A stretch of 64,000 bases of DNA from Vicinamibacterales bacterium (GCA_965197395.1 OZ240205.1:1787107-1851106); one strand, 5' to 3'; shown: positions 29,719-58,418, numbered from the stretch's first letter. The notes: generated by a model not told the origin, from the letters alone. Numbers and translations: made by a program.

Positions 29719-31536
29719 ATGAGCTATACGATACGCACCCACTCCCCTGCGGCCGTGCGTGCACCCGTGGTCGCCGTGGCGGTGATGATGCTCGCGTCGG
29801 GCGGGGCGCGCGTTGAAGCACAGCCTGCCGCTGACTTCACACCGGTAACCGACGCCATGCTTCAGCAGCCGGCGCCCGACGACTGGTTGATGTGGCGTCG
29901 CACGCTCGACAGCTGGGGCTACAGCCCGCTCGACGCGATCAACAAGGACAACGTGGGTGCGCTGCGCATGGTCTGGACCCGGGCGCTCACGGACGGATTC
30001 CAGTCGGGCACACCGCTGGCCTACGACGGCGTGATGTACATGCCGAATCCGAACGACGTCATTCAGGCGCTCGATGCGGTGACCGGCGACCTCATCTGGG
30101 AGCATCGACGCGATGTGCCTGAGGACGTCACCGAATATGTGTTTGGCGCGCTCGCCACCAACAACCGGAACATCGCGATCTACGACGACCTCATTCTCGA
30201 CACGAGTGTGGACGATCATGTCTTCGCGCTCTCCGCGATGACCGGCCGGATGGTGTGGGAGACCGAGGTCCTCGACTACACCGTGAACCCGGCAACGCAG
30301 GGCTCCGGCCCGATCGTCGCGAACGGCAAGTTGATCACGGGACGCAGCTGTTCCCCGAAGGGTGGACCGGAGGCATGTGTCGTCACCGCCCATGACGCGA
30401 TAACGGGTGCCGAAATCTGGCGGCGGCGCCTGATTCCCGGGCCCGGCGAGCCTGGAGACGAAACCTGGGGCGACGTGCCGTTCGAGGAGCGGTTCCACGT
30501 CGGGGCGTGGATGGTGCCGAGTTATGACCCGGCACTGAATCTCGTCTACGTCGGGACATCCGTGACGGCGCCAGCCCCGAAGTTCATGCTCGGAGGCACC
30601 GACAACAACCACCTCTATCACAACTCCACGCTCGCGCTCGACGCCGACACGGGGGAGATCGTCTGCTATTACCAGCACCTGAACGACCATTGGGACCTCG
30701 ATCACCCATTCGAGCGATTGCTGGTCGACACGGCGGTGGCGCCCGACCCGTCGGCGGTGAGCTGGATCAACCCGCGGTTGCGGACCGGAGAAATGCGGCA
30801 GGTCGTCACCGGCATCCCGGGGAAAACCGGTGTCGTCTACACCCTGGACCGCGCCACGGGCGAGTTCTTGTGGGCGACGCCGACCGTCACGCAGAATGTC
30901 ATCAGTAGCATCGACGGCGCGACCGGGGATGTGGCGGAAAACTCGGAGGTCGTCTTCACCGCGCTGGGGCAGGAAGTGTTCGCCTGTCCGACTTGGAACG
31001 GAGGGAAGGATTGGGAGGCGGGCGCCTATAGCCCGCTGACGAACACGATGTATATGCCGCTGCGGAATACGTGCGCGCGCATGATGGCGACCAACACCTT
31101 TCCGGAGAACGCCGAGGTCGCACGAAACGAGAGCCGCTCTGAGAACTACGCGATCGTCTACCGCCACCAACTGACGCCCGGCACCGAGTACGCAGGCACC
31201 GTCCGAGCGATTTCCGCTGAAACCGGCGAAACGGCATGGCTCTACGAGCAACGAGCGGCGACGATGTCACTCGTCGCGACCGGTGGCGGGCTCGTGTTCG
31301 GTGGCGACGTCAACGGGCGGTTCCGGGCGCTGGATCACGAGACGGGGGAGATACTCTGGGAGATCAACCTCGGATCGTCGGTCACCGGATTTCCGATCAC
31401 CTACGCCGTCGATGGCCGTCAGTACGTGGCGGTCAGCACCGGTTCCGGGGGCACGTCGGCGCATTTCACCGGCTTGACCCCCGAGCTCCGGCCGAGCTCG
31501 GGGAACAACCTCTTCGTGTTCGCCTTACCGGACTAG
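29719..31536 (+). CDS. PQQ-dependent dehydrogenase (8-bladed propeller, methanol/ethanol family; no Cys-Cys pair)
   Basis: DDWLMWRRTLDSWGYSPLDAINKDNV, GTPLAYDGVMY, YYQHLNDHWDLDHPF, FPITYAVDGRQYVAV. Confidence 0.9.
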   Translation: MSYTIRTHSPAAVRAPVVAVAVMMLASGGARVEAQPAADFTPVTDAMLQQPAPDDWLMWRRTLDSWGYSPLDAINKDNVGALRMVWTRALTDGFQSGTPLAYDGVMYMPNPNDVIQALDAVTGDLIWEHRRDVPEDVTEYVFGALATNNRNIAIYDDLILDTSVDDHVFALSAMTGRMVWETEVLDYTVNPATQGSGPIVANGKLITGRSCSPKGGPEACVVTAHDAITGAEIWRRRLIPGPGEPGDETWGDVPFEERFHVGAWMVPSYDPALNLVYVGTSVTAPAPKFMLGGTDNNHLYHNSTLALDADTGEIVCYYQHLNDHWDLDHPFERLLVDTAVAPDPSAVSWINPRLRTGEMRQVVTGIPGKTGVVYTLDRATGEFLWATPTVTQNVISSIDGATGDVAENSEVVFTALGQEVFACPTWNGGKDWEAGAYSPLTNTMYMPLRNTCARMMATNTFPENAEVARNESRSENYAIVYRHQLTPGTEYAGTVRAISAETGETAWLYEQRAATMSLVATGGGLVFGGDVNGRFRALDHETGEILWEINLGSSVTGFPITYAVDGRQYVAVSTGSGGTSAHFTGLTPELRPSSGNNLFVFALPD

Positions 31537-31882
31537 CCCGGTGGTCGCCGATCTCGATCAGCTCCATCACCTGGAAGCCATCCGCGCGCAGCTTCATCCC
31601 CGGGTCCCACTGCTTGAGGCGCAGCATGAGGGAGCCGCCCTCTTCCTCGATGGAGATGAGCTCGATCATGTTCGTCGCGCCGTCGGCGGTCGACCGCACG
31701 AGCGCGGCGATGGAGCCCGCCTCCGGAATGGCCCAGCGCTCCTCGAGCGTCCCGTTGCCGGTGTTGCCCTTGTAATGCCCGGTCATCCAGGCGAGGTCGG
31801 AAACTTTGGCGGCCGGTCCCGCAGCGAACGCCGGGGCAGACGCAAAGAGGACGAGAGCAAATCCGAGTAGCATGCGCCGCAT
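31466..31882 (-). CDS. small secreted protein (DUF6265-like pattern)
   Basis: Signal peptide MRRMLLGFALVLFASAPAFA, then LAWMTGHYKG...LEERW. The 3' end overlaps the convergent PQQ gene by ~70 nt, so the true stop or extent is uncertain. Confidence 0.45.
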   Translation of the reverse strand: MRRMLLGFALVLFASAPAFAAGPAAKVSDLAWMTGHYKGNTGNGTLEERWAIPEAGSIAALVRSTADGATNMIELISIEEEGGSLMLRLKQWDPGMKLRADGFQVMELIEIGDHRASPVRRTRRGCSPSSAGARGSSR

Positions 31883-31975
31883 GGCGTTCTCCCTTCGAAG
31901 TCGTGAGCGGACGGTGCACCGTCCGCGTGGTCGGCCTCATTATAGTCGTGATTCCCCACTCCGTTCATTGCTACC

Positions 31976-32392: not shown

Positions 32393-32402
32393 GGACGACA
32401 TC

Positions 32403-33591: not shown

Positions 33592-33609
33592 CCTCGCGCG
33601 GTCGCCGAC

Positions 33610-34851
33610 TCACTCAACCGGTTCGATTCGTAGGAGCGCGGCCGCTCCGAGAGCCGGGTCGCTGCCGGCGAAACTGCCCCCCGTGAGCACGTAGAGCAGT
33701 CCATCAGGCCCTTGTTCGACGTCGCGAATCCGTTGTCGGAGGTCGACGAGCAAGGACTCCCGCCGCCGCTCTCCCCCCCCCTCGTTGAATTTGATCCGCT
33801 CCAGATGACCGGTGCGCTCGACACGCGCGGTCATGAGCGACCCTGCGAAGAGATCCCCACGCCAGGCGGGAAAGCGATCGCCGCTGTAGAACACCAGGCC
33901 TGAAGGCGCGATCGAGGGAATCCAGACGATCTCGGGCTGTTCCAGGTCCTCACGCCACGGTCGCTCCGTGACCCGTGGCCCCGAGTACTCGCGTGAGTAC
34001 GAGACGAGGGGCCAGCCGTAGTTGCGCCCGGGCAAGATGATGTTGACTTCGTCGCCACCCTGCGGCGCATGCTCGCTGGCCCAGACCGCCCCCGTGTCCG
34101 GATGGATGGCCAGACCCATCTGGTTGCGATGTCCCAGCGAGTAGATCTCCGGCTTGTGCTCGGCCAGCCCGACAAACGGGTTGTCGTCCGGTGCCGACCC
34201 GTCGTCGCGCAACCGCAGCACTTTTCCCACATGATTGGTCGGGTCCTGGGCGTGTGGCCGCCGTCCACCGAACGCGCCCCCCACCGTCATGAACAACGTG
34301 CCGTCCGGCGCGAACCGCAACCGCGAGGCGCCCGCGGCGCCGCCGCCCGCGTCGGCTACGAAGACGTCGCGGACGTCGGTCAACGCGTGTCCGTCCAACC
34401 GCCCCCTGGCCAGCGCCACGGTCGAGCCTGCATCTGTCGGCTTGGAGTACGTCAGGTACACCCAGCCGTTCTGCGCGAACGCCGGATGCACCGCGACGTC
34501 CATCAGGCCGGAGAGCGCCGCTCTGAACACATCGGGGACGCCCGCAACCGGCGTCGGATCCAGCGCACCATCTCGAATCAGCCTGAGGGTCCCCAACCGC
34601 TCCGTCACGAGCATGCTGCCGTCCGGCAGAAACGCGAGGCCCCATGGATACGTCAGGCCGTCCGCGACGATCGATACGCGGATCGCCTGTGCCTCGGCGG
34701 TGTCGTAGACCACCGGCGGGTCAGGCAGGGCGACAGCGGGGATGCCCCGCGCCGCGAACGGCTCCGCTTGAGGCTGCTGTGCGTCGAGCACCGGTGACGG
34801 TAGCGCCATCAGGGCTGTCACCGTGAGGATGAGGACGATTGTTCGCAGCAT
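33610..34851 (-). CDS. PQQ-dependent sugar dehydrogenase (soluble glucose/sorbosone dehydrogenase type)
   Basis: Signal peptide, LTYPWGLAFLPDGSMLVTERLGTLRLI, RLRFAPDGTLFMTVG, HRNQMGLAIHPDTGAVW, EHAPQGGDEVN. Confidence 0.85.
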   Translation of the reverse strand: MLRTIVLILTVTALMALPSPVLDAQQPQAEPFAARGIPAVALPDPPVVYDTAEAQAIRVSIVADGLTYPWGLAFLPDGSMLVTERLGTLRLIRDGALDPTPVAGVPDVFRAALSGLMDVAVHPAFAQNGWVYLTYSKPTDAGSTVALARGRLDGHALTDVRDVFVADAGGGAAGASRLRFAPDGTLFMTVGGAFGGRRPHAQDPTNHVGKVLRLRDDGSAPDDNPFVGLAEHKPEIYSLGHRNQMGLAIHPDTGAVWASEHAPQGGDEVNIILPGRNYGWPLVSYSREYSGPRVTERPWREDLEQPEIVWIPSIAPSGLVFYSGDRFPAWRGDLFAGSLMTARVERTGHLERIKFNEGGGERRRESLLVDLRQRIRDVEQGPDGLLYVLTGGSFAGSDPALGAAALLRIEPVE

Positions 34852-35002
34852 AGTCAGGCCTCCAGGGAACGGACGCCTCGCGACCGCGTCACGAAAGACG
34901 ATACCAAATGGGGTGGGGCCACGCCCGATTGGCCACGCCGGTCGTGGCGTCGCAAAGCCGCGCCTCGTGGTACAGTCAACATGACAACACGAGGTTCAGA
35001 CT

Positions 35003-36010
35003 ATGACCATCCGACCCTTCGCGTCTCTCGCTAGCGGCGTCGCGCTCGTGCTGCTCGTCCCGGCGGCGGCCGCCGCCCAATCCGGCAGCGGCTCGTCGCC
35101 CCTCAAGACCGCAGACGGGCACCCCGATCTGAGCGGGGTCTGGGATTTCCGGACCGTCACGCCGCTGGAGCGCCCGGAGGAGTTCGCCGACAAGGAGTTC
35201 CTGACAGAGGAAGAAGTTGCCGAGTACGCCGCCGAACGCGTGCGAGCCAGCAATGCCGACCTGGATCGGGAGCAGAAGAAGCAGGTGACGACGGCCCGTG
35301 GCCAGGTAAACGGCACCACGGAGACTCGGGACCTCGCGCTCGCGTACAACGACTTCTGGTGGGACCGCGGGACGGCCGTCGTCGAGACCCGTCGGACCTC
35401 GCTCGTCGTCGATCCCCCGAACGGTCGGATTCCCGCGCTGACCGACGCGGGCTCCGCGCGGGCCGCCGAGCTAGTCCGGATCAATCAACGGCCGACCGAG
35501 GGTCCGGAGGACCGTCCATTGGGCGAGCGGTGCATCACCGGCTTCAATTCAGGACCGCCCATGATCCCGGCCGCCTACAACATGAACGTGCAGATCTTTC
35601 AGACCGCCGACCACGTCGTCTTGTTCAACGAGATGGTGCACAACGCACGGATCATCCCGCTCGATGGCAGCGCCCACGGCGCGATTCCACAATGGACCGG
35701 TGTGTCACGCGGACGCTGGGAGGGAGACACCCTCGTCGTCGAGACCAAGAACTTCCTGCGGGAGACCAGCTTCCGGAATTCGACCAAGAACCTCCATCTG
35801 ATCGAGCGCATACAGCGAACCAGCGATGACGACCTGCTTTACAGCTTCACGGTGACCGACCCGACGACCTGGACCGAGCCGTGGACGGTGGAGCTTCCGA
35901 TGCGTCTGAGCGACCTGCCGATCTACGAGTACGCCTGCCATGAGGGGAACTACGGCATGGAAGGCACGCTGAGCGGCGCCCGTGTCATCGAGCGGAGGTC
36001 GGGCGAGTAG
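35003..36010 (+). CDS. secreted protein of the expanded uncharacterised family (short form)
   Basis: Signal peptide, DGHPDLSGVWDF, TSLVVDPPNGRIPAL, ERCITGFNSGPPM, EMVHNARIIPLDG, WEGDTLVVETKNF, YEYACHEGNYG. Confidence 0.8.
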   Translation: MTIRPFASLASGVALVLLVPAAAAAQSGSGSSPLKTADGHPDLSGVWDFRTVTPLERPEEFADKEFLTEEEVAEYAAERVRASNADLDREQKKQVTTARGQVNGTTETRDLALAYNDFWWDRGTAVVETRRTSLVVDPPNGRIPALTDAGSARAAELVRINQRPTEGPEDRPLGERCITGFNSGPPMIPAAYNMNVQIFQTADHVVLFNEMVHNARIIPLDGSAHGAIPQWTGVSRGRWEGDTLVVETKNFLRETSFRNSTKNLHLIERIQRTSDDDLLYSFTVTDPTTWTEPWTVELPMRLSDLPIYEYACHEGNYGMEGTLSGARVIERRSGE

Positions 36011-36057: not shown

Positions 36058-38217
36058 TCACTCCGGCTTCGCAAAGACCCACAGTGCGGTGCCCCGGTCT
36101 GGAGGACTCTCGATCTCTGGCGCGAGCACCGAATACGCGCGGGTGAGATACCCGCCGCTCCCCGTGATGACGGCGACGTATTGCCGCCCGTCGACCGCAT
36201 AGGTGATCGGCGGGCCGTTCGGCACGTCGCTCAGCCGGGTGTGCCAGAGTCGATCGCCGGAGTCCGCGTCGTAGGCGCTAATCCGCCGGTCCAGCGACCC
36301 GGCGAATACCAGGCCGCCGGCGGTCACGAGGGCCCCGGTTGTCTGCGGCGCGCGTTGTCGCGCGATCCACACGGTCTCTTTCGTCTCCAGATTGATGGCT
36401 TCCAGTCGGCCATAGCTCCCGTCGCTCTCCGGGCGTGGTCGGACCGTCCAGCGCACGCCGGTGGTCAAGCTGCCACGCTCGCCTTCGGCCACCGGGACGA
36501 GGTCCATGCACGCCTCCACGATCGGCACGTAGACGATCTGCGTCCTCGGGTCGAACGCCGTCGGCGACCAGCTCCGACCGCCGCCCACATGCGGACAGAG
36601 CGATTTCGTCTCGCCATCGCCGGGAATGAGGCTCGGGTCCTGGGTTTTGCGACCGGTGACCGGGTCGATGAACGTGATCCCCGTCTGCAACCCGAGATCC
36701 AGTGATGACACGTACTTGCCGGTCCGCGCCTCGACGATGTCGAAGATGGCTTGCTTCCCGGCGGTCACGACCACGCGCGTCGGGACGCCGTTGACTGGGA
36801 GCTCGATGACCTGCCGCTCGAACGCCCAATCCAGATCCCATTGTCCGTTCGCCTGGTGCTGAAAATGCCAGGCGAGTCCACCGGTATCGGGATTCAGCGC
36901 TAGCGTGGTGTCCAGGTAGAGGGCATCGTTCGTGACGCCGTCCTGGGCGACCAGATCGCGTAACGGCCCGGTGTCGTAAGTGTTGCCCGTGCCAAAGAAC
37001 GCGAGGTTGGTCGTCGGGTCGTAGCTCCCCGGGATCCAGACCGAGGCACCGCTGCGGTGCTCGAGGGCCAAGCCGTTCCAGCTGTTGCCGCCCGGCTCAT
37101 CTGGACGTGCAATGGTGGCGAACCTCCACGCTTCTACCCCGGTCTCGGCGTCGAGGGCCACGATGTCGTTGCCCCCGCCACCCTGGCCCTGCGTGCCCAT
37201 CAGGACCTTACCGTTGGCCACGAGCGTGCCGCCTGTCAGGCGCATGCGGGACTCCGGATCCCCGACCTGCTGGTCCCACACGACGTCGCCGGTCTTGACG
37301 TCGAGCGCCACGACATGCAGGTCCGAGGTAGGCACGTACAGTCGCTCACCGTAAATCGACATGCCGCGCTTGAGGCTCGGCGACACCGTCCCCGGGAGCC
37401 GCCGGGCATACTCCCAGAGCATGTCTCCACTGGCGGCGTCGAGCGCCTGGACCTTGTCTCCGTAGCCGTGCACGAACAGGACGCCGTCGTGCACGATCGG
37501 CGTCGACTCGTTGGGGCCCATCGGCAGCGCCCACGACCATGCCAGACGCAGATCGGCGACTGTGTCGGTGGTGATGTCCGCGAGCGGACTGAATCCGGAC
37601 GCATCGTAGCTACGCCGCCACAGCAGCCAGTCGTCGGCGGGGGCGTTCTCGAGCATCGCGTCGGTCACCGGTCGAATACGGTCGAGCGGGTTGCGCCGGG
37701 CGGGCCATGGTGGGAGCGCGACGCCCGGCGCGAGCGCGCCCTGCGCCTGCCAGCCAGGCGCTATCCCGTCGAGCAGGTCGAGGTCGGCAGTCAGCGGCGT
37801 GGGGCCGGCTTCCACCCCATTCTCCTGCAACATCAGCGCGAGGAGCTCCGCGTATATCTCGTCCCCGAGCGCGCCCGGCCGGTCCTCCGGCATCGTCGTG
37901 CTCGTGACGGTGAAGAGTGCCTCGAGCGACCGCGGGCTCCACTTCACCCGGAAGGTGTTGCCCTTGAGCGGCGGGGCGAAGGGGCCGTCATCCAAGTTCT
38001 CGCCGTGGCATGACGCGCAGTGCTGCGTGTAGGCAGCGAATCCCGCATCTGCTTGCTCGGTGGTGTAGGTGGCGGGCTCGCGCTGGATCCGCCCCTGGGC
38101 CGCCTGCGCAACCGCGCCGTGGCTCACCATCGCTGCCGTGCCAAGCCAGAGGCCGATGACGCGCAGGCCGGGATTCGTCGCGCGACACATTCGGGTTCGT
38201 GGAGAAACGGCTGTCAT
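36058..38217 (-). CDS. PQQ-dependent dehydrogenase with N-terminal c-type cytochrome domain (quinohaemoprotein)
   Basis: CASCHGENL haem motif near the N-terminus, then DDWLLWRRSYDASGFSPL, WHFQHQANGQWDLDWAF, PPITYAVDGRQYVAV. Confidence 0.9.
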   Translation of the reverse strand: MTAVSPRTRMCRATNPGLRVIGLWLGTAAMVSHGAVAQAAQGRIQREPATYTTEQADAGFAAYTQHCASCHGENLDDGPFAPPLKGNTFRVKWSPRSLEALFTVTSTTMPEDRPGALGDEIYAELLALMLQENGVEAGPTPLTADLDLLDGIAPGWQAQGALAPGVALPPWPARRNPLDRIRPVTDAMLENAPADDWLLWRRSYDASGFSPLADITTDTVADLRLAWSWALPMGPNESTPIVHDGVLFVHGYGDKVQALDAASGDMLWEYARRLPGTVSPSLKRGMSIYGERLYVPTSDLHVVALDVKTGDVVWDQQVGDPESRMRLTGGTLVANGKVLMGTQGQGGGGNDIVALDAETGVEAWRFATIARPDEPGGNSWNGLALEHRSGASVWIPGSYDPTTNLAFFGTGNTYDTGPLRDLVAQDGVTNDALYLDTTLALNPDTGGLAWHFQHQANGQWDLDWAFERQVIELPVNGVPTRVVVTAGKQAIFDIVEARTGKYVSSLDLGLQTGITFIDPVTGRKTQDPSLIPGDGETKSLCPHVGGGRSWSPTAFDPRTQIVYVPIVEACMDLVPVAEGERGSLTTGVRWTVRPRPESDGSYGRLEAINLETKETVWIARQRAPQTTGALVTAGGLVFAGSLDRRISAYDADSGDRLWHTRLSDVPNGPPITYAVDGRQYVAVITGSGGYLTRAYSVLAPEIESPPDRGTALWVFAKPE

Positions 38218-38410: not shown

Positions 38411-39647
38411 ATGCGCCGAGTGCTCGAGCTGACCGGGGTCATGGCAGTGGTTTTGGCCGTCACCGTGCTGCTAAATATGACGCTGGTACCGGTCCCGATC
38501 GCCGGCCAAGAGGAGGCGGCCCCGGCTGCCCCGACCCTCCTGGGGCGAGCCGGATCTGCAGGGCATCTGGACGACCGACTATGAGATCCCGCTCCAGCGA
38601 CCCGCGCGGTTCGCCGGCCAGGAGTTCTTCACCGACGAGGAACGGGCCGAGCTGGATAGGGAACGGGCCCGCATCATTGGCTCCGACCAGCGGCGCTCGG
38701 ATCGGGGAAGTGAACAGGACGTCGGCGGCGCCTACAGCGCGGCGATCTTTCTGAGCCACAAACATATGGGCCGGCGGACGTCGTTGATTGTGGACCCGCC
38801 CGATGGCAGAATCCCTCCCCTCACGCCGGAGGCGCAGTCGCGGCGGGACGCCATCCGCGAGTATCAGCTCGCGCTCATCCGGCCCACCGACGTCTGCCGG
38901 AACAACCTGCCCGCCTGCGCCGGCGGACAGTACGGGCCGCCGTCACCGAGGAGAGCCGAGCCGCCGCCGTACTATCCGGCGACCGGGGCGGCAGCGGGTG
39001 GGTCCTTCAATCGCTCGGACGGACCGGAGGACCGCGGATTGGGGGAGCGGTGCATGTCGGCGCGCCTGCCGGACTTTGGCGGCGCGGCGGGGTATTTCCT
39101 GCGGATCGTGCAGTCGCCGGGGACGGTCTCGATTTTCTATGACACGGGGCAGGGGCAAGGGTGGCAGCGGGTCATCCCGGTGACCGACCGGCCGCATCTG
39201 CCCGCACGCGTGCGGCAGTGGTGGGGAGACTCGCGCGGTCGGTGGGAGGGGAAAACGCTGGTCGTTGACACGACGAACTTCAGCCCGAAGACGGACTATC
39301 AAGGGTCGCGCGAGAACCTGCATCTGGTCGAACGATGGACGCGGCTCGACGCGGCGAGGATCGAGTACGTCGCCACGATGGAGGACCCGACGACGTGGAC
39401 GAGTCCGTGGACCGTGGCGGTCGAGCTCAGCCAGCAAAGCAACGAAGCGAATCGCTTCTATACGGAGCCCCGGTGCCACGAAGGCAACTACGGCCTGCCG
39501 GGGTTGCTCGCGGGCGAACGTGCGATGGAGCGCGCGTTCGCGGAAGGCAATGGCCCCGATCCGGCGACCCTGTGCACCGCCGGCTGCGGAGGATTTGCCG
39601 GAGGATTCGCCGACAGCGGGGCGGAAACGAATCCGCTGGGACGATGA
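38411..39647 (+). pseudogene. long-form member of the expanded family with a +1 frameshift near 38537-38540
   Basis: ATG 38411 gives a signal peptide. The frame breaks at ...CCGACCCTCCTGGGGCGA..., where the paralogue at 41307 has ...CCGACCGCGTGGGGCGA... (4 nt versus 3). Downstream, WGEPDLQGIW...CHEGNYG is intact to 39647. Confidence 0.65.
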
Positions 39648-39802: not shown

Positions 39803-40768
39803 ATGCGAAACCGGTTCAGAAGCTCAAGGATTGGCGCGGCACTTGTCGTCGCGGCTGTGGGCGCCGTCATCGCCGTGTCGATGACGCGCACCGCTGGCCA
39901 GGCGCCGTCGCCAGGACGCACCGTGGACGGCAAGCCCGACTTCAGCGGGATTTGGCAGGCCAACAACGAGGCCAACTGGGATCTCGAGGCGCACGCCGCG
40001 CGTCCGGGCGCGGTGACGCAACCGGGCGCATATCCCTTTCCTTTCGCGGAGGTGCCGGCGGCGCCGGTGCTCGCGCTCGGCGCGGCCGGCGGCGTGCCCG
40101 GGTCCCTCGGTGTCGTCGAGGGCAATGGTACGATTCCGTACACCCCGGAAGCCGCGGCAATCAAACAGGAGAACGCGGCAAACTGGATCGACCGCGACCC
40201 GGAGCTCAAATGCTATCTGCCGGGCATCCCGCGCGCGATGTACATGCCCTATCCCTTTCAGATCGTCCAGAGCACGAACAAGATCCAGATGGCCTATGCG
40301 TTCACGAGCACGGCCCGTACGATCCACCTCGATCAGGTCGAGGGGCCGCCCGACGACACGTTCATGGGGCATTCGGTCGGCCGCTGGGAGGGGGACACGC
40401 TGGTCGTCGACGTGACCGATTTCAACGGCAAGAACTGGTTCGACCGAGCGGGGAACTTCCACAGCACGGCCTTGCGTCTGGAGGAGCGGTTCACACCGAT
40501 CTCGCCTGACGCAATCCGCTACGAGGTGACGATAGAGGATCCGAACACCTTTACACGGCCCTGGCGGATTTCGATGCCGCTGTATCGGCGTTTGGAGCCG
40601 AACATGCAGCTCCTCGAGTACCGCTGTATCGAGTTCGTCGAAGAGTTCCTCTACGGACACGTCCGCAAGGAGCAGCTCGTCCAACGGTGGGAGGGGGAGA
40701 CGATCATCGTGGACATCACGCGGAAGGTGCCGCCAGGGGACGCCTTCTACGAGTGGTATCGGAAGTAG
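39803..40768 (+). CDS. divergent member of the expanded secreted family
   Basis: Signal peptide, DGKPDFSGIWQA, WEGDTLVVDVTDFNG, DPNTFTRPWRISMPL. It lacks the CHEGNY motif (LEYRCIEFVEE). Confidence 0.7.
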   Translation: MRNRFRSSRIGAALVVAAVGAVIAVSMTRTAGQAPSPGRTVDGKPDFSGIWQANNEANWDLEAHAARPGAVTQPGAYPFPFAEVPAAPVLALGAAGGVPGSLGVVEGNGTIPYTPEAAAIKQENAANWIDRDPELKCYLPGIPRAMYMPYPFQIVQSTNKIQMAYAFTSTARTIHLDQVEGPPDDTFMGHSVGRWEGDTLVVDVTDFNGKNWFDRAGNFHSTALRLEERFTPISPDAIRYEVTIEDPNTFTRPWRISMPLYRRLEPNMQLLEYRCIEFVEEFLYGHVRKEQLVQRWEGETIIVDITRKVPPGDAFYEWYRK

Positions 40769-46518: not shown

Positions 46519-46534
46519 GTGAAAGCCTCTTCTT

Positions 46535-47554
46535 CTACTGCTGGGCCGCGGCCTGCTCATCCTCCCGCGCACCGCGCAGGATGTTGAGCAAGCCGTAGTT
46601 CCCCTCGTGACACGCGTACTCGAAGATCGGGGCGTCTGATTTGCGCAGTGGAATCGCGGCCGTGAACGGCCGGGTGAACGTGGTCGGGTCGTGGACCGTG
46701 AACTCGTAGCGCAGCACGTCGGCGTTGACCCGCGTCAGACGCTCGATCAAGCGGAGGTTGTCACCGATGCCCAGCGCCGTCAGGCCGTTGATGAAGCTTG
46801 CCGTCTTGTCGGTGAAGTTCGTGCTCTCGATGACGAGGGTGTCGCCGTCCCAGTGCCCCCGCGCGTCGCCGTTCCACTGCCGCAGGTCGTCCGACAGGTG
46901 CGGGCGTCCGTCCAGCGGGATGATGCGTGGATCGTGCACCATCTCGTTGAGAACCACCACGTGGTCGGCGGTCTGAAACACCTGGACGTTCTGGTTATAG
47001 CCGCCGGGAGTCAACGGCGGCCCGTTCGCGAACCCCAACAGACATCGTTCGGCAAGGCCGCGATCCTCGTGGCCGTCGACGCCGCTCCCGCCCACCCGAT
47101 AGCGAAGAGGCCGGGGTGCCGGCAAATCCTCGGAGAGCGAGCCGACCTGGCTCACCGCGTTCGGCGTGAGCGGCGGGAGCTTCCCGTCCGGCGGGTCCAC
47201 GATCAACGACGTCCGGCGGTCGTCGATCAGCCCCTGAGTATCGAACCAAAACGCGTTGTATCCACCCGGGTCACCCTCCGGCGGGGGGCTGTCGAGGGCG
47301 GCGGCCAGGAACTCGGCGGCGCGCGCCTTCTGCGCCGCCGCTTCCTCCGCCGTCAGCTCGGTTTTCCCGGCCAGCTCGTCCGGACGCTCCAGCGGGACCG
47401 TCGTGCGGAAATCCCACACACCGCCCAGGTCCGGCGCACCCCACGACGTCCGGGGCGTCTGGCCCGCGTCCGTGGATTGCGCCTCGGCGAGGGGTGATGA
47501 CACCGCCACGACGGCGGTGACGGCCAGCGCGGTAGCGAGATGTCGATAGCTCAT
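46535..47554 (-). CDS. secreted protein of the expanded family (short form), tandem copy 1
   Basis: This is the C-terminal 339 codons of the 891-aa ORF. Start chosen at MSYRHLATALAVTAVV (ATG 47552-47554). Same motif set as 45502..46518. Confidence 0.85.
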   Translation of the reverse strand: MSYRHLATALAVTAVVAVSSPLAEAQSTDAGQTPRTSWGAPDLGGVWDFRTTVPLERPDELAGKTELTAEEAAAQKARAAEFLAAALDSPPPEGDPGGYNAFWFDTQGLIDDRRTSLIVDPPDGKLPPLTPNAVSQVGSLSEDLPAPRPLRYRVGGSGVDGHEDRGLAERCLLGFANGPPLTPGGYNQNVQVFQTADHVVVLNEMVHDPRIIPLDGRPHLSDDLRQWNGDARGHWDGDTLVIESTNFTDKTASFINGLTALGIGDNLRLIERLTRVNADVLRYEFTVHDPTTFTRPFTAAIPLRKSDAPIFEYACHEGNYGLLNILRGAREDEQAAAQQ

Positions 47555-47647
47555 GTGACGCTCCTCCTCAGACTGTCCGCTAAGCATATGATGGACCCGC
47601 AGAGTGGCGGCGTGCAACACGCACGTGGAAAAGAGGGGGCCCTGTTC

Positions 47648-49279
47648 ATGCAGCGACTGGCGATGGTCGTGACGGTGCTGGCGCTCGTGCTCGTTCGACC
47701 GGTGGCCGGCCAGGCGCCCTCGTTTTCTCCCGTGACTTGGGAGCGTCTCGTGAACGCCGCCGCCGAGCCCCACAACTGGCTCATGTACTCGGGGACCTTC
47801 GACAGCCAGCGCTACAGCGGGCTCGACCAGGTCCATAGCCGCAACGTGGGCCAGCTCGAGCTCAGGTGGGCCCATCAGCTGTCGGCGATCGATCGGGCCG
47901 AGACGACGCCGCTCGTCGTGGACGGCGTCATGTTCGTGACCGAGGCCCCGAGCAACGTCGTCGCGCTCGACGCGGCGACCGGGCGGGCGTACTGGCGCTA
48001 CGAGCACGAGCTGCCGGACGACCTCCGGATCTGCTGCGGCCGTAATAATCGGGGCGTCGCGATCCTCGACGAAACGCTCTATATGAGCACGCTGGACGCG
48101 CACCTGGTGGCGATCGACGCGCGGACCGGCAACCTCGTCTGGAACCGAGAAGTCGCTGACCATCGGGGCGGCTACAGCAAGACCGCGGCGCCGCTCATCG
48201 TCAAGGATCGGGTCGTCACCGGCATCGCGGGCGGTGAGTTTGGCATCCGCGGCTTCCTCGACTCGTATCAGGCGGAGACCGGCGACCGCGTGTGGCGGAC
48301 CTACACCATTCCGGGGCCCGATCATCCCGACAACCGCAGCTGGTCGGGTGACTCGTGGCGTACCGGCGGCTCGCCGACCTGGATCACCGGCTCGTACGAC
48401 CCGGATCTCGATCTCGTCTACTGGGGGACGGGGAACCCCGGCCCCGACTACAACGGTGACGTCCGGCTGGGCGATAACCTGTATGCCGATTCGGCACTGG
48501 CGCTCGACGGCGAGACGGGTGAGATGGAGTGGTATTTCCAGTTCACGCCGCATGACGTACATGACTGGGACGCGATCCAGGTGCCGATCCTCGCGGACCT
48601 CGACGTTGCGGGGGAACGGCGCAAGGTGATGATGTGGGCGAACCGCAACGCGTTCTACTACACGATCGATCGCGAAACCGGCGAGTATCTGGTCGGCAAA
48701 CCGTTCGCGCGCCAGACCTGGGCCCAGGGGCTCGACGCCGATGGCCGACCGATCCGCGTGCCCGGCATGTTTCCGAGCGTTGACGGGATCGTGGTCTCGC
48801 CGCCCGCGGCCGGCGCCACCAACTGGATGTCGCCGGCCTATAGCCCGCGGACGGGGTTGTTCTACGTGATGGCGTACGACGGCGAGGCGGAATTCTTCAT
48901 CCGCGATGATGATTACGTCGAAGGCGACCGCTTCATCGGCGGCGGCCAGACGCGACCATTGCCGAGTGACGAGTACACCAGCGCGGTGCGGGCCATCGAT
49001 CCGCGGACCGGTGATCGGCGCTGGGAATACCAAGTCCAGCCGCAGACGTGGGCTGGGCTGTTGACGACCGCCGGTGACCTCGTCTTCGGCGGCAGCGTCG
49101 ACGGCTACTTCTACGCGCTCGACGCCGTCAGCGGCCGCGAGCTGTGGCACATCTCCGTCGGAGCCCAGGTGCGCGCGGGCCCGATGACCTACGCGGTCGA
49201 TGGCGAGCAATACGTCACGATCGCGGCCGGCAACGTCATCTACACCTTCGGTCTCCCGTCTGATAGCGGCGCGCGGTAG
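47648..49279 (+). CDS. PQQ-dependent alcohol/methanol dehydrogenase family protein (Cys-Cys pair, D-W-D)
   Basis: Signal peptide MQRLAMVVTVLALVLV, NWLMYSGTFDSQRYSGLDQ, DDLRICCGRNNRGVA, WYFQFTPHDVHDWDAIQ, GPMTYAVDGEQYV. Confidence 0.9.
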   Translation: MQRLAMVVTVLALVLVRPVAGQAPSFSPVTWERLVNAAAEPHNWLMYSGTFDSQRYSGLDQVHSRNVGQLELRWAHQLSAIDRAETTPLVVDGVMFVTEAPSNVVALDAATGRAYWRYEHELPDDLRICCGRNNRGVAILDETLYMSTLDAHLVAIDARTGNLVWNREVADHRGGYSKTAAPLIVKDRVVTGIAGGEFGIRGFLDSYQAETGDRVWRTYTIPGPDHPDNRSWSGDSWRTGGSPTWITGSYDPDLDLVYWGTGNPGPDYNGDVRLGDNLYADSALALDGETGEMEWYFQFTPHDVHDWDAIQVPILADLDVAGERRKVMMWANRNAFYYTIDRETGEYLVGKPFARQTWAQGLDADGRPIRVPGMFPSVDGIVVSPPAAGATNWMSPAYSPRTGLFYVMAYDGEAEFFIRDDDYVEGDRFIGGGQTRPLPSDEYTSAVRAIDPRTGDRRWEYQVQPQTWAGLLTTAGDLVFGGSVDGYFYALDAVSGRELWHISVGAQVRAGPMTYAVDGEQYVTIAAGNVIYTFGLPSDSGAR

Positions 49280-52695: not shown

Positions 52696-52812
52696 GCGCG
52701 AGCTACCTCGCGATCACGCCGCTGACGCGGACATCGTCGCCGGGTGTGTAACACTTCCATCGTGTTCGCGTAGAACCAGGTGACGGGCGGGCGTGCCGCC
52801 CCGCGAGCGACG

Positions 52813-54354
52813 ATGACCGAGCCCCGAATTTGCCCGACGTGTAAGGCCGAGATTCCCGCCGACGCCCCACCGGGCGTCTGCCCCTTCTGCGCGCTCCGCG
52901 CGGGGTATCGGCGGGAAGCGACGACCCTGCCCGGGTCCGGCGCCTCCGAGGCGCCGCCGCTGTCACCCGAGGAGCTGAGCCGGCGGTTGCCGGAGCTCGA
53001 GGAGTTCAGCCTGATTGGTCCGGGCGGCATGGGTACCGTCTACCGCGCCCGCCACCGGGAGCTCGAGCGGCCGGTCGCCGTGAAGGTGATCCACGCGCAC
53101 CTCCTCGAGCGCGAGGGGTTTCGAGACCGATTCGCTCGCGAAGCGCGTACGCTGGCACGGCTGGACCATCCGAACATCGTCAAGGTCTACGACTTTGGGC
53201 AGCGCGAGCGTCTCTACTATTTGATCATGGAGCTGGTCGATGGCGTCACGCTGCGTCAAGCCATCGACGAGGGCGCCATCGAGCCGAAGGAGGCGCTGTC
53301 GCTAGTGCCTCGGATCTGCGAGGCGCTGCAATACGCGCACGACCAGGGAATCGTGCACCGCGACATCAAGCCCGACAACATCCTGCTCGATCGACAGGGC
53401 GCGCTGAAGATCGCCGACTTCGGGCTGGCGAAGCTCGTCGGGACGGCAACAGAACCCCGCCTCACCCGCACGGAACAGGTGATGGGCACGCCCCACTACA
53501 TGGCGCCCGAACAGATCGAGACGCCTGCTCACGTCGACCATCGGGCGGACATCTACGCCCTCGGCGTCGTGTTCTACGAGATGTTGACAGGCGAGCTGCC
53601 CGTCGGGCGGTTTCCGCGACCCTCGAAGCGCGTGGGTATCGATGTGCGCCTCGATCGGGTCGTGCTGCGCACGCTGGAGAAGCAGCCAAGTCTACGGTAT
53701 CAGCGTGCTCGCGACTTGAAGACAGAGGTCGAAGCGCTGTCCGATCCGGACCACACGCCAACGGCACACGCGCGCCGCTCGCCCGGTGAGCGCGACGGCG
53801 CGTCGGATGACGACCTGTGGGGGTCGGCGTATCTCGGCTCGATCGGGGACGAGAGTGAGTGGGATTCAGAGATGCTCTGGAGCCGGCGGTCTCGCGGCTA
53901 CGAGTATCGGTCGGAGAAGACGCTCTGGGGACTGCCCCTCATCCATGTCCTCTTCAGCGCCGACCGGATGGGGGTCGCGCGCGGCGTCGTTGCGATCGGC
54001 GAACGGGCCGTCGGGTTGGTGGCCGTTGGAGGCATGGCGGTCGGTGGTATCACGTTGGGTGGTATCAGCCTCGGCCTCTTCAGCCTCGGGGGTATCGCGC
54101 TCGGCCTTCTGGTCGGCCTCGGTGGTTTGGCGTTCGGCGGTATCGCCGCCGGCGGCGTAGCGATGGGGTTGGCCGCGACCGGCGCGGAGGCCCGGAGCTT
54201 CCTCGATCTCTCGGCAGAGAATGTCGAGCAGGTCGGGTTCGTCGCGTGGGCAGTGGGTACGGCTGCGTCCTTCGTGGCCGTCGCCGCGGTGCTGATGTGG
54301 CTCACCGCGACCGGCGGCCGGGCTCGCGGCAAGACTAGTCGGAAGGCAGGCTGA
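52813..54354 (+). CDS. Ser/Thr protein kinase with N-terminal zinc ribbon and Gly-rich polytopic C-terminus
   Basis: [55 protein letters not shown]. The tail is made of GG-x3-GG repeats ([22 protein letters not shown]...). Confidence 0.85.
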
Positions 54355-56383
54355 ACGCGAGCAGCTCTCCGGAATAGACGCCGCCGCTGATGGCAACGAC
54401 GATGTACTGCTTGCCGTCCAGCATGTAGGTCATCGGCGACCCGCTCTGCGGCGCCGGCATATACACCGCGCCGACCTCGACCCCAGACGCCTTGTCATAG
54501 GCGCGCAGCATCGCGCCACGCCCATCGGGCGTCGTGTTGTAGTCCGCCTCACCAGCGATCAGGAGCGTCGAGGTCACCAGGGTCCCGACGCTGCCCGGCC
54601 GGCCGGTGCGTGGGAGATCACGGTCACGGAGCGCCGGGTGATTCTTGACCCGGTCAGGCGTCGCGCCGTGCGCGATCTGCCAGAGGATCTCACCCCGGTC
54701 CATGTCGATGGCGCTGATCCGTCCGTAGGGGGGTTTCAGGAGCGGCAGCCCCTGGACGCTCAGGTTGACGAGTCTTCGGTCCCCGCGCGGCGCGGAGCCC
54801 GCACTCGCCCCCGTCCGACCGCCGCCGGCCGCTGAACCGGCACCGCCGGTGCGGCGCGGGCCGGTGATCGCGTTGCCCTGGATGTACTCCATGTCCGACT
54901 GGCCGGGGTCAGGTGGGACGATGCCGAGACCCCCGAGCGAGCTGTTGGATGACACATAGAGGATGTGGGTCTCCGGGTCGTACGACCCCCCTGGCCAGTT
55001 CGTGCCGCCGCCCGCCGCTGGCGCCATGAGTATCCCGAGCGGGCCGTCCAGTTGGCTGACCACCGGTGGGGTGAAGATCGGCCCGATCGTGTAATGCGAC
55101 GCGAGCTCCACGGCTTGGGCGCGGAGCTCTGGCGTGAAGTCGATCAGGTCGTCGATCGTCACACCCTGACGGTCGTAGGCGGGCGGCCGGGTGGGGAACG
55201 GCTGCGTCGGGGAATACCATTCGCCCGGCACGTCACCCGCGGGCACCGGTCGCTCTTCGATGGGCCAGATCGGCTCGCCGGTCTCCCGGTTGAAGACGTA
55301 GAGGAACGCCTGTTTGGTCGGTTGCGCCACGGCTTTCACCGTTCGGCCGTTCAGCGTGATGTCGATGAGGATCGGTGCACAGGGAATGTCGTGGTCCCAG
55401 ATGCCGTGGTGAACGAGCTGGAAGTGCCAGCGCCGTTCGCCCGTCTGGAGGTCGACCGCGACCAGGCTTTCGCCGAACAGGTTGTTGCCTGGCCGATTGG
55501 CGCCGAAGTAGTCGCCCGTTGGCGCCTCGACCGGCAAATAGACGAGTCCAAGCTCCTCGTCGACCGAGATCTGCGCCCAGACCCCCGCGTTGCCGGTGTA
55601 CTCGGCGGAATCGCTCAACCAGGTGTCGCGGCCGTACTCGCCCGGCAGCGGGATGGTGTGAAAAATCCACAGACGCTCCCCGGTTCGCACGTCGTAGCCG
55701 CGGACATACCCCTTCACGTTGCGCCGGCTGCGCGGATTGCCGCCCGTGCGATGGGCCGCGCCGACGATCACCACGTCGTTCGCCACGATGGGTGTCGCGT
55801 GCAGCCCGACCTCGCCGGTGATCGGATCGATCTGCTGGTCGTATTCGCGCTTCAGGTCGACGAGACCGTCCTCGCCGAACTCGGGAACAGGACGGCCCGT
55901 CCGTGTGTCGAGCGCGATCAAGCGGTAGCCTGGTGTGACGTAGAGGATGCGCGCGTCCGCGCCGTCGCCCCGCCCGTCCCAGTAGGCGAGCCCCCGACCC
56001 GACAGCCGCCGCGGCGCGGCCTCGCCACGCGCGCCCTCGTCGAGGCTGTAGACCCACGTCAACTCACCCGTGGCCGCGTCGAGGGCCACGACCGCACGCC
56101 GCGATCCGGCCGTCGAATACATGACGCCGTTCACCATCAGCGGTGTGGATTCGAATCGGAACTCAGGACGCGGACCCAGATTGTCGGTCTTGAATCGCCA
56201 CGCGACCTCCAGGTCGCCGAAGTTGTCCGAGGTGATCTGATCGAGCGGGGCGTAACGCGTGTGGCCGAGATCGCCGCCGTAGGTTGGCCACTCGCCGTTC
56301 GCGGCACCGGTTTGCGCGGTGACCACTCCCGCGCTCAGGAGGCAGGCGGTCACGATACCCGTCGCCGCCAGGGTGTGCGTCAT
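54335..56383 (-). CDS. PQQ-dependent dehydrogenase, glucose/quinate/shikimate-dehydrogenase-like, soluble (signal peptide only)
   Basis: Start chosen at [24 protein letters not shown] (ATG 56381-56383). [51 protein letters not shown]. Confidence 0.85.
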
Positions 56384-56708
56384 TGTCGTGGTCGTGCGTC
56401 GGTCACCGGGCCAACGGTGGATCGAGCAGTGCGGGATCCACCAGGCAGCACCACCGGCAGCAGCGCCTGCCCCGCAGAGGCCGCCTGTCCGACCTCGGCT
56501 CGCGGCTCGCGCCCGAGCGCTGCCACTGGCCAGAGCGAGACCGGGGCCGCCAAGCCCAGCACGATCCAGACCTTCGCTGCGCACGGACTGCGTTTCCGTC
56601 TCATAGCGCTCTCGACTGGTCTCTTCAGAGTCACGTGATTTCCGGAATATAGGCGAATGCCGGGCCCCATTCAACCAGCCCGCACGAACCGGCGGATGGG
56701 CCGTCGTG

Positions 56709-58418
56709 TCAATCGCGAAGCGCGAACGCCACGAGCGAGTGCCCGGAGATGGTGGCGACATACTGCTTCCCCGCCACCTCATAGGCCATCGGACCGTTGA
56801 CGATCTGCCCGCCCAGATTCGCCTTCCAGAGCAGTTCGCCGGTCCGGGCGTCCAGCGCCTGGAAGTAGCCCTCCCGCGAGCCGGTGAACAGCAGGTCCGA
56901 CGCCGTCGTCAGGATGCCGCTCGAGCTGACGTCGGTCGTCTCGAACACCCACTTGCGCTCACCCGTCACGGCGTCCAGGGCGACGACCGCGCCGTGACCA
57001 GCGGCGTCGGTCCACGTGTTCAGGGGACCGCGGCTGAGGCCGGGCACCGTCGGCGCGCCCGGCACCGGCGCATGGCCCGTCGGGGCGCCCCCGATGAACG
57101 CCCGGCCCGGTGAGTACTCCTGCGCCGCTTCGTTGAAGACCGAGCCGTAGTCTTCCCACGCCGAGACGTAGAAGAGCTCCGTGCGCGGGCTATACGACGG
57201 CGAGTACCAATTCGTCCCGCCCTGGACGCCAGGGAAGGTGGGCTCGCCGGGTGGCTGCGGCGTTTCGACCGGTCGCCCGCTGTCGTCCAGGCTTTCGGCC
57301 CAGTTGACCGTCACGAAGGGGCGCCCGGTGAGGAACCGGCCGGTGGCCCGGTCGAGGATGTAGTAGAAGCCGTTCCGGTTGCCCCAGACCATCAGCTTGA
57401 ACTGCACGCCGTTCCGCTCGATATCGATCAGCACCGGGATCTGCACCGCGTCATAGTCGTACGGGTCGTCCGGCGTGAACTGGAAATGCCACCGCAGCTC
57501 GCCGGTGTCGGCATCGAGCGCCACGACCGAGTCGGTGTACAGGTTGTCGCCGGGACGCTGACTCGCGTTGAAGTCGGGACCCGGGTTGCCGATGCCCCAG
57601 TACGTCAGGTTGAGCACGGGGTCGTAGGACCCGGTGATCCAGACCGCGCCGCCGCCATGCCTCCACGCCTCGGGGTCGCAGTAGGCGGTGGCCGGGGTCG
57701 GGCAGGGCTCCCACGTCTCGTGACCGGGCTCTCCCGGCCCAGGAATCGTGTAGAACCGCCATGCCTCCTCGCCGGTCTCGGTATCGTACGCGGCGATGAA
57801 CCCGCGGATGCCGTAGTCCCCACCGCTGGTGCCGACGATCACCTTGTCCTTGACCGCCAGCGGCGCGTGGGTGAGCGCGTAGGCGGACGCCTTGTCGGCG
57901 ACCTCGACGTTCCAGAGCTCACCACCGGTCACGGCGTCGATCGCCACGAGATGCGCGTCGAGCGTGGCCAAAAACACCGTATCGCCCATGACAGCGACGC
58001 CGCGGTTGTTCGACCCGCAGCAGGCCCTGTGGTCGGACGGCGTCGGGTAGCGGTAAATCCAGAAGACCCGGCCGGTCCGCGCATCGAGCGCCACGACGTC
58101 GTTGGGCCGCTGGGTGACGTACATGATGCCGTCCACCACGAGCGGTGTCGCCTGCCACGGTCCAAAGACCCGGGCCTGGTAGACCCACTGCTGCTCGAGG
58201 GTGGCGACATTGTCGGGCGACACCTGGTCGAGCTCGCTGAAGCGCTGGCTCCCATAGCCGCCGGAATAGGTCAGCCAGTTCTGCGGCTCGTCGGCCGCCT
58301 GGCGTAGCCGCTCGTCGGAGACCTGCGCGGTCGGGTTCTCGGCCGACACGAGCACGAGCAGAATCAGGATCGAGAGGAGGCGCCGCCCGGTCGCACCGGG
58401 TGCCATGGTCGACGTCAC
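56709..58418 (-). CDS. PQQ-dependent alcohol/methanol dehydrogenase family protein (Cys-Cys pair, D-Y-D)
   Basis: NWLTYSGGYGSQRFSELDQ, SDHRACCGSNNRGVA, WHFQFTPDDPYDYDAVQ, GPMAYEVAGKQYV. Confidence 0.9.
   Translation of the reverse strand: MTSTMAPGATGRRLLSILILLVLVSAENPTAQVSDERLRQAADEPQNWLTYSGGYGSQRFSELDQVSPDNVATLEQQWVYQARVFGPWQATPLVVDGIMYVTQRPNDVVALDARTGRVFWIYRYPTPSDHRACCGSNNRGVAVMGDTVFLATLDAHLVAIDAVTGGELWNVEVADKASAYALTHAPLAVKDKVIVGTSGGDYGIRGFIAAYDTETGEEAWRFYTIPGPGEPGHETWEPCPTPATAYCDPEAWRHGGGAVWITGSYDPVLNLTYWGIGNPGPDFNASQRPGDNLYTDSVVALDADTGELRWHFQFTPDDPYDYDAVQIPVLIDIERNGVQFKLMVWGNRNGFYYILDRATGRFLTGRPFVTVNWAESLDDSGRPVETPQPPGEPTFPGVQGGTNWYSPSYSPRTELFYVSAWEDYGSVFNEAAQEYSPGRAFIGGAPTGHAPVPGAPTVPGLSRGPLNTWTDAAGHGAVVALDAVTGERKWVFETTDVSSSGILTTASDLLFTGSREGYFQALDARTGELLWKANLGGQIVNGPMAYEVAGKQYVATISGHSLVAFALRD

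Follow-up and report, generated by a model that had tools for sequence, protein, structure and literature searches.

In XoxF1, Asp320, which lies two residues after the catalytic Asp of this pyrroloquinoline quinone (PQQ)-dependent dehydrogenase, has been found by experiment to be essential for La3+, and the ExaF variant D319S has been described as the counterpart of XoxF1 D320A, lanthanide (Ln) function being abolished in both enzymes by these Asp-to-Ala/Ser substitutions. The D-x-D motif formed by the two Asp residues serves as an assumed lanthanide indicator in a survey of ocean PQQ dehydrogenases, which recorded up to 70 such genes in Acidobacteria, D-x-D in all glucose dehydrogenase (GDH)-like sequences and an all-D-x-D clade related to sorbose dehydrogenases (SDHs), and which named putative Ln-SDH and Ln-GDH clades (Voutsinos et al., ISME J 2025). 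Similar repertoires have been reported from rock and soil Acidobacteria and Gemmatimonadota, together with XoxF-type systems accompanied by cytochromes and YncE propellers and with La-binding six-bladed enzymes of the NERD...D type (Voutsinos et al., 2024, 2026). The cluster described here is a new instance of this phenomenon, already known from metagenome surveys: a stretch of 64,000 nucleotides from a Vicinamibacterales bacterium (GCA_965197395.1 OZ240205.1:1787107-1851106), hereafter the window, carries five eight-bladed PQQ propellers (PQQ1 to PQQ5) and one sugar dehydrogenase inside 29 kb. We consider it fairly probable that the cluster represents an expanded set of periplasmic quinoproteins in which PQQ3 and PQQ5 are the likeliest lanthanide users; all metal assignments are predictions, the case being strong for PQQ3, reasonable for PQQ5 and tentative for PQQ1 and PQQ2.

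The original prediction was read from the sequence alone, and it was followed up with Pfam, NCBIfam, HMMER searches against PDB, multiple alignment and a neighbour-joining (NJ) tree. The six enzymes that it had listed are indeed found at their positions, five as PF01011 matches with E-values from 3e-57 to 3e-190 and one as a PF07995 match:

29719..31536, plus strand: PQQ1, periplasmic eight-bladed PQQ dehydrogenase (PF01011)
33610..34851, minus strand: YliI/Asd (sGDH-family) aldose sugar dehydrogenase, six-bladed (PF07995, E 4.7e-117)
36058..38217, minus strand: PQQ2, quinohaemoprotein in which an N-terminal cytochrome c domain is followed by an SDH-like PQQ propeller (PF13442, PF00034, PF01011)
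47648..49279, plus strand: PQQ3, methanol/ethanol-family PQQ alcohol dehydrogenase (PF01011, TIGR03075)
54335..56383, minus strand: PQQ4, soluble glucose/quinate dehydrogenase-like PQQ propeller (PF01011 over its full length, 3e-190)
56709..58418, minus strand: PQQ5, methanol/ethanol-family PQQ alcohol dehydrogenase (PF01011, TIGR03075)

All six proteins have signal-peptide-like N-termini, and a tblastn search of the six against the window found no extra copy or fragment of any of them. Because of the signal peptides and the intact PQQ-site residues, they are predicted to be, most likely, active periplasmic oxidoreductases.

For the metal site, reference sequences of PDB chains were rebuilt from HMMER alignments, with lengths checked against the reported coordinates, and were complemented with P. 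denitrificans MxaF, E. coli Gcd and Sagittula XoxF5, the last of which scores 1090 bits against M. extorquens XoxF1 (6OC5). The verified column anchors of the L-INS-i multiple alignment are C103, C104, E177, N261, D303, A305 and R331 of MxaF, corresponding to C131, C132, E199, N281, D323, D325 and R350 in PedH and, in the ligand columns, to E192, N276, D318 and D320 in XoxF5. Asp occupies both the D303 and the A305 column in all five window propellers, at motif coordinates that agree exactly with the translations and the alignment residue numbers:

30694..30702, plus strand: PQQ1 D326-L-D328 (translation and alignment; W-D-L-D in 120/120 close homologues)
36829..36837, minus strand: PQQ2 D461-L-D463 (translation and alignment)
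48563..48571, plus strand: PQQ3 D306-W-D308, aligned with PedH D323-F-D325
55388..55396, minus strand: PQQ4 D330-H-D332 (translation and alignment)
57450..57458, minus strand: PQQ5 D321-Y-D323 (translation and alignment)
57816..57818, minus strand: codon of PQQ5 Asp201, discussed below (ungapped alignment)

Judged by alignment, the second Asp of all five propellers is homologous in position to PedH Asp325 and XoxF1 Asp320, both in the HMMER pairs with PedH (6ZCV) and in the multiple alignment with XoxF5, MxaF and PedH, which bears out what the original prediction had supposed of this residue. The rule stated there, Ala or Ser/Thr at this place in the Ca enzymes, also agrees with the alignments, in which MxaF reads D-Y-A and the Ca quinohaemoproteins 1KV9, 1YIQ and 1KB0 read D-x-T, and with the parallel between ExaF D319S and XoxF1 D320A. 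Where it went too far was in setting PQQ1, PQQ2, PQQ3 and PQQ5 side by side as four lanthanide-type dehydrogenases. The motif is present in these four, and in PQQ4 as well, but the enzymes are not equivalent: among the window enzymes PQQ3 alone has all four canonical ligands, as in PedH and XoxF, whereas PQQ5 has Asp for Glu, PQQ2 lacks the Glu and PQQ1 lacks both Glu and Asn. D-x-D is diagnostic for only two of the five propellers, namely PQQ3 and PQQ5.

The metal site of PQQ3 consists of Glu197, Asn263, Asp306 and Asp308, accompanied by C129-C130 and R333. In PQQ5, the corresponding residues are Asp201, Asn278, Asp321 and Asp323, with C133-C134 and R348, and its SGGDYG stands without a gap opposite the GG(A)E(F/Y/L)G of PedH (GGEFG), XoxF, MxaF and the quinohaemoprotein alcohol dehydrogenases (ADHs). 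The vicinal Cys-Cys noticed earlier in these two enzymes is present (ICCGRNNRG in PQQ3, ACCGSNNRG in PQQ5) and is found in none of PQQ1, PQQ2 and PQQ4. The exchange of Glu for Asp in PQQ5 is neither an error nor a one-off, because it is fixed across homologues, the CC/D/N/DxD/R signature being kept in 120/120 close homologues and in 80/84 PQQ5-like open reading frames (ORFs) of Vicinamibacterales loci. Of the 150 sequences representing 50%-identity clusters, the majority show E-N-D-x-D; in about a quarter the Glu position is taken by Asp, and D-x-T is seen in about ten. The PQQ5 family itself numbers thousands of sequences, mostly from Vicinamibacterales. The start of PQQ5 is probably the ATG at 58406, four codons downstream, giving a protein of 565 aa, the length of one cluster member. 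PQQ3 and PQQ5 would be the best lanthanide candidates of the set: PQQ3 is probably lanthanide-dependent, and for PQQ5 the balance tips slightly towards the same prediction.

Among solved structures, PQQ3 and PQQ5 are nearest by score to PedH (397 and 345 bits; 6ZCV at 1.2e-117 and 7.5e-102), followed by the type II quinohaemoproteins, XoxF and MxaF. Both are 40% identical to PedH/ExaF (6ZCV/6ZCW), the best solved matches of both, and have in common with them the fold, the vicinal Cys-Cys, Asn, the catalytic Asp, the second Asp and Arg, whereas the Glu ligand of PedH is found in PQQ3 only and is Asp in PQQ5. Directly after the motif, PQQ3 and PQQ5 read D-A-(I/V)-Q, like the quinohaemoprotein ADHs (T-A-T-Q) and unlike PedH/ExaF (D-G-V-N). 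With XoxF1-5 and MxaF, they share the superfamily and the metal-ligand columns; identity is only 32-37%, and the hallmarks PHDEWD and GGGT(T/N)WGWY are absent.

The NJ tree, calculated from 490 columns with 50 bootstraps and few references, joins PQQ3 and PQQ5 (86%) inside a large, mostly D-x-D clade with a Sinorhizobium protein described below and many representatives of ~700 aa with an N-terminal CxxCH, apart from XoxF5 plus MxaF (100%), from the D-x-T quinohaemoproteins (100%) and from the PedH group. A XoxF identity of PQQ3 and PQQ5 was rejected on this placement and on the motifs, and PedH/ExaF likewise form a separate clade. In this limited reference set, none of the five propellers falls inside the XoxF1-5 or PedH/ExaF clades, and on present placement no window enzyme is a XoxF1-5 or PedH/ExaF orthologue. 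Among cultured organisms, the protein nearest to PQQ3 and PQQ5 (45-49% identical) is an unannotated quinohaemoprotein on the S. fredii plasmid psfSMH12a (3392-5575; L083), with an N-terminal CSACH cytochrome c and a full CC/E/N/D-W-D/R site, and it offers a tractable model for the clade.

In NCBIfam, PQQ3 (565.5 bits) and PQQ5 (534.8 bits) exceed the TIGR03075 cut-off of 480, below which PQQ2 (368.6) and PQQ1 (330) remain. PQQ3 and PQQ5 also match TIGR04528, the 'acido-empty-quinoprotein group A', at 528.7 and 496.2 bits, and the idea behind this family, that some proteins are 'empty' quinoprotein homologues holding no PQQ as the organism cannot make it, would agree with the lack of pqqABCDE genes in the window, noted at first reading and upheld in the ORF scan, and with the many XoxF-bearing Acidobacteria reported to lack PQQ synthesis. 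However, both scores stay below the TIGR04528 cut-off of 650, and the PQQ-site residues (Arg109, Trp243, Arg/Lys331 and Cys-Cys or Cys...Cys) are kept; conserved cytochrome c partners stand beside PQQ5 and are fused in PQQ2, PQQ is known from the literature to be importable by TonB-dependent PqqU-type transporters, and the 64 kb cover only a minor fraction of a 5-7 Mb genome. We regard empty homologues as very improbable here, and we continue to read the proteins as most likely functional quinoproteins.

The cytochrome partners of PQQ5 lie in a compact gene group directly upstream of it:

58423..59199, minus strand: cytochrome c with two cytochrome-c domains, directly upstream of PQQ5 (PF00034 twice, PF13442)
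59249..59665, minus strand: monohaem cytochrome c of 138 aa (PF13442), conserved in the relative described below
59679..60722, minus strand: YVTN propeller (TIGR03866 at 4.9e-30 and 104.7 bits, cut-off 287; TIGR02276 repeats), conserved in the same relative

The order is thus YVTN propeller, cytochrome c, cytochrome c and PQQ5, followed after 325 bp by the co-oriented PQQ4, and a relative at 96% identity preserves all of this order, PQQ4 included. The cytochrome next to PQQ5 measures 258 aa from an internal ATG, has a 258-aa orthologue in this relative and is probably the electron acceptor of PQQ5. In 42 of 79 loci, a homologue of it immediately precedes the PQQ5 homologue; the loci were taken from the top 79 genomic hits of PQQ5 (71-80% identity) and measure ~20 kb each, 1.57 Mb in total. 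The 138-aa cytochrome is 40% identical to residues 35-152 of PQQ2, its N-terminal domain, and this type of cytochrome is a likely electron acceptor whether free-standing or fused. Adjoining dedicated cytochrome c genes of the XoxG/PedF kind, together with accessory proteins, are a feature of xox/ped-type loci that the PQQ5 group shares; no XoxJ-type binding protein was found. Ahead of the operon, an ankyrin-repeat protein and a DUF1552 (HXXSHH) protein are encoded at 61192-62733 and 62700-63998 on the minus strand, in an order that is conserved in the 96% relative (L084, 1841-7235), where a PSCyt/PSD multidomain cytochrome-like protein also precedes the operon.

PQQ1 and PQQ2 belong with sorbose dehydrogenase, PsADH and DepA. 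The best PDB matches of PQQ1 are 4CVB (1e-127, 42% identity), 9M2C, 7WMD, 4MH1 and 22VI, those of PQQ2 are 4MH1 (2.8e-81), 22VI and 4CVB (33% identity), and in the tree PQQ1 is sister to 4CVB, 7WMD, 4MH1 and 22VI (100%) with PQQ2 basal to them (100%). The features of these two enzymes that matter for the comparison are as follows:

30349-30378, plus strand: PQQ1 Cys211-Cys220 loop, CSPKGGPEAC (alignment)
37156-37188, minus strand: PQQ2 loop, GQGGGGND (alignment)
38005..38019, minus strand: haem c motif CASCH of PQQ2, residues 67-71 (translation)

Like PQQ1 and PQQ2, the known enzymes of this group have no vicinal Cys-Cys and carry Lys at the Arg331 position. In the ligand columns, PQQ1 has P213 (Glu), V282 (Asn), D326 and D328, with K369 at Arg331 and the pair C211...C220, and PQQ2 has G346 (Glu), N412 (Asn), D461 and D463, with K488 at Arg331. 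The Cys...Cys pair of the group is kept in PQQ1, whereas the PQQ2 loop contains no Cys; PQQ2 differs further in retaining the Asn ligand and in adding an N-terminal cytochrome c, whose domain covers approximately residues 55-127. Cys211, Cys220 and Lys369 of PQQ1 are kept, like its W-D-L-D, in 120/120 homologues, and residue 218 is acidic in 115/120. PQQ1 fits the description of the third, all-D-x-D 'putative Ln-SDH' clade, found mostly in Acidobacteria and Gammaproteobacteria (Voutsinos et al., 2025).

A CxxCH before the propeller is also common among the 50%-cluster representatives nearest to PQQ5 (~700 aa), and the S. fredii protein combines it with a PQQ3-like propeller (49% identical to PQQ3), in contrast to the SDH-like propeller of PQQ2. 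The PVA dehydrogenase of Sphingopyxis is likewise a quinohaemoprotein with an N-terminal cytochrome c domain.

The solved members of the sorbose dehydrogenase group (4CVB, 7WMD, 4MH1, 22VI) read D-S/Q-E and lack equivalents of Glu177 and Asn261. The D-x-D of PQQ1 and PQQ2 is, within this group, a Glu-to-Asp exchange and no added ligand; to judge by where it lies and by published mention of Ca-PQQ in 4CVB, the second-position Glu would take part in Ca binding. A carboxylate at this position coexists with Ca in the SDH group, and the motif is therefore less diagnostic for PQQ1 and PQQ2. What distinguishes these two from the solved D-x-E enzymes with Ca-PQQ, besides D-L-D, is a loop that is longer by two residues and includes an acidic one. 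An acidic loop end (PEAC, DDTC, GND) occurs at the Glu177 region in three D-x-D SDH-like lineages, including a second Vicinamibacterales lineage with the loop CGRYRDDTC, whereas in the D-x-E Ca enzymes this loop is shorter by two residues and contains no acidic one (CQFSGF--GC). Two carboxylates are found at the metal in Ca enzymes (MxaF E177 and D303; 4CVB D297 and E299) and three in Ln enzymes (Glu, Asp and Asp). If it reaches the metal, the loop acid of PQQ1 and PQQ2, E218 and D351 respectively, may be a third carboxylate favouring a trivalent metal, and lanthanide use by these two enzymes is plausible, if somewhat short of probable. A bolder proposal would see two metal-site variants here, an Asp-Asn-Asp-x-Asp lanthanide site in the PQQ5 family with another ionic-radius preference and a three-carboxylate site made of D-x-D and the acidic loop in PQQ1 and PQQ2; we think it doubtful. 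The PQQ5 ligand variant looks unreported and, if the proposal is true, PQQ1 and PQQ2 would be the first lanthanide-dependent sugar/polyol dehydrogenases with a ligand set unlike that of XoxF.

PQQ4 is the least informative of the five as regards its metal. It stands apart from the other four in the tree, nearest to the E. coli Gcd outgroup and with no bootstrap support for the grouping, and its TIGR03074 match (380.8 bits, below the cut-off of 832.65) covers profile positions 149-767 only. The five-helix N-terminal membrane anchor of Gcd is absent, only a signal peptide preceding the match, and PQQ4 can be set beside the soluble 'GDH group 1b/2' of Voutsinos et al. The start at 56383 is backed by a 682-aa orthologue beside the PQQ5 orthologue in the 96%-identical relative. 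Gcd is 31% identical, and both enzymes have D-x-D, with a Lys of PQQ4 (K357, in the Arg331 column) at the Gcd K493 position; T213 and A287 of PQQ4 stand in the Glu and Asn columns, where Gcd has Asn355 and Val422, and no Cys is found. The motif says little on the metal of PQQ4 because E. coli Gcd also has D-M-D (D466-M-D468 in the alignment), as the original prediction had cautioned for its glucose dehydrogenase-like fifth enzyme, and lanthanide use by PQQ4 appears rather unlikely.

These observations lead to the alternative that D-x-D is a state inherited in the lineage and not a determinant of the metal, most or all of the enzymes using Ca2+ (or Mg2+) like their SDH and GDH relatives, and a number of points weigh on its side or against lanthanide use. 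The D-x-D rule has been validated only on XoxF1/2/4/5 and ExaF/PedH, outside the four clades present here. In the SDH group, enzymes with Ca-PQQ have a carboxylate at the second position (D-x-E): 4CVB contains Ca-PQQ, and PQQ together with Ca2+ supports activity in related ADHs of K. vulgare. For E. coli Gcd, with its D-M-D, binding of Ca, Mg, Zn and Sr has been reported. The canonical Glu is missing in PQQ1, PQQ2 and PQQ4, and the Asn also in PQQ1 and PQQ4, while in PQQ5 Asp201 takes the place at which all aligned references have the Glu ligand. The role given to the acidic loop residue comes from the alignment, and the tree contains few references. No pqqB-E or other pqq biosynthesis gene, TonB-dependent receptor, lanthanide-uptake gene or lanmodulin-like gene was found among the ~56 window ORFs scanned. 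In the related loci, D-x-D occurs in 30/31 GDH-like ORFs and in all SDH-like ORFs, whatever their other ligands. Against this alternative, PQQ3 reproduces the entire PedH/XoxF site; among the alcohol dehydrogenases in the tree, D-x-T/A goes with the known Ca enzymes and D-x-D with the known Ln enzymes; the substitutions in XoxF1 and ExaF cited above abolish Ln function; and an acidic loop residue, absent from the D-x-E Ca enzymes, has been gained by the SDH-like enzymes with D-x-D. On balance, general Ca (or Mg) use has a real but minor chance of being right, and lanthanide use centred on PQQ3 and PQQ5 is preferred.

The sixth enzyme would be a conventional Ca-type aldose dehydrogenase. It covers profile positions 1-324 of 332 in PF07995, matches PDB 7CDY (1.7e-70) and E. 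coli YliI 2G8S (4.3e-68), aligned over residues 56-393, and shows no notable difference from these YliI/Asd enzymes, its EHAPQGGDE corresponding to the conserved EHGPRGGDE (EH.P.GGDE). The La-binding six-bladed class was considered for it and rejected, the motif being YliI-like, without NERD...D or NGRD...D.

How unusual such a cluster is can be judged from the 79 loci already mentioned. Their labels are nearly all metagenome-assembled genomes of Vicinamibacteria, Vicinamibacterales or Vicinamibacteraceae, four being given only as Acidobacteria or Bryobacterales, and several genomes among the matches contribute four to seven separate loci each. The loci contain 132 PQQ-propeller ORFs, with at least two in 40/79 and at least three in 12/79. 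The background amounts to about one extra PQQ gene per 30 kb, against which five in 28.7 kb has a Poisson p of ~0.02; the five propellers are at the dense end of a common pattern and not unique. The presence of the motif in five of five is a lineage trait and not a coincidence, because D-x-D is the majority state in the superfamily, accounting for 61% of marine PQQ dehydrogenases.

Interleaved with the PQQ genes is a family of eight secreted paralogues of ~335 aa with a C-terminal (F/Y)EYACHEGNYG motif, here called the CHEGNYG family, which has no Pfam or NCBIfam family:

8457-9143 (minus), 16186-17181 (plus), 35003-36010 (plus), 38538-39647 (plus), 39803-40768 (plus), 41253-42572 (plus), 45502-46572 (minus) and 46535-47566 (minus): CHEGNYG family

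Of the eight, one is fragmentary and another seems to carry a frameshift; within two pairs, identity reaches 84-87%. Databases contain no fewer than 8000 homologues, none of them named, and 83 copies are spread over 34/79 loci around PQQ5 homologues. An AlphaFold2 (AF2) model of low confidence (pLDDT 62) has a weakly calycin-like C-terminal barrel, with Foldseek matches at E 1e-3 or worse, and the protein may serve the quinoproteins as a periplasmic ligand-binding partner.

Directly 5' of PQQ1, a metallo-beta-lactamase-fold protein (27429-28577, plus strand) is weakly like 'quinoprotein relay system zinc metallohydrolase 2' (78 bits, cut-off 280); it was considered as PqqB and rejected, having no PqqB match. 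It is adjoined by a protein with two Lipocalin_5 domains (28490-29713, plus strand), and a sigma-54 activator lies at 25900-27447 (minus strand). Upstream of the cluster are an IS3-type integrase (7384-8292, plus strand), an ISL3 transposase (9987-11264, minus strand) and a group II intron reverse transcriptase/maturase (14344-15903, plus strand), and the ISL3 element seems to split a CHEGNYG-family copy and a DUF1587/ankyrin gene. A protein of 426 aa at 3522-4802 (plus strand) has four C-terminal EF-hand loops, DQNGDGIITRDE, DTNADGLLEEDE, DLDGDGRVTRGE and DTNGDDVLDERE; it was rejected as a lanmodulin, as its loops are without Pro at position 2 and it lies 25 kb off, behind the insertion sequence (IS) elements.

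Starting from family membership, residue homology, gene arrangement and conservation, we infer the metal, the substrates and the electron path as follows. The source would be the chromosome of a soil or marine-type member of the Vicinamibacteria (Acidobacteriota), a lineage in which the periplasmic quinoprotein dehydrogenases have greatly expanded. Alcohols, polyols or sugars would be oxidised at the PQQ-metal cofactor, with the conserved Asp as base, the metal polarising the C5 carbonyl of PQQ and hydride being transferred to PQQ, and the electrons would pass through c-type cytochromes to the respiratory chain. PQQ5, from a family with Asp in place of the Glu ligand, would be co-transcribed with its cytochrome c partners and the YVTN propeller, and PQQ1 and PQQ2 would act as broad-specificity dehydrogenases of the sorbose dehydrogenase/PsADH type, PQQ2 bringing its own cytochrome c. 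PQQ and any lanthanide would be supplied by genes outside the window.

As published surveys assume that the 'D-x-D = lanthanide' rule can be extrapolated, the cluster provides a compact test set by which the reach of this rule can be calibrated, with PQQ3 as the canonical site, PQQ5 as the Glu-to-Asp variant, PQQ1 and PQQ2 as SDH-like D-x-D enzymes and PQQ4 as the GDH-like one. If the lanthanide reading is true, rare-earth elements would be linked within one acidobacterial locus to the oxidation of alcohols, sugars and polyols alike, and the view that lanthanides are used well beyond methylotrophs in the carbon turnover of soil and ocean would gain support.

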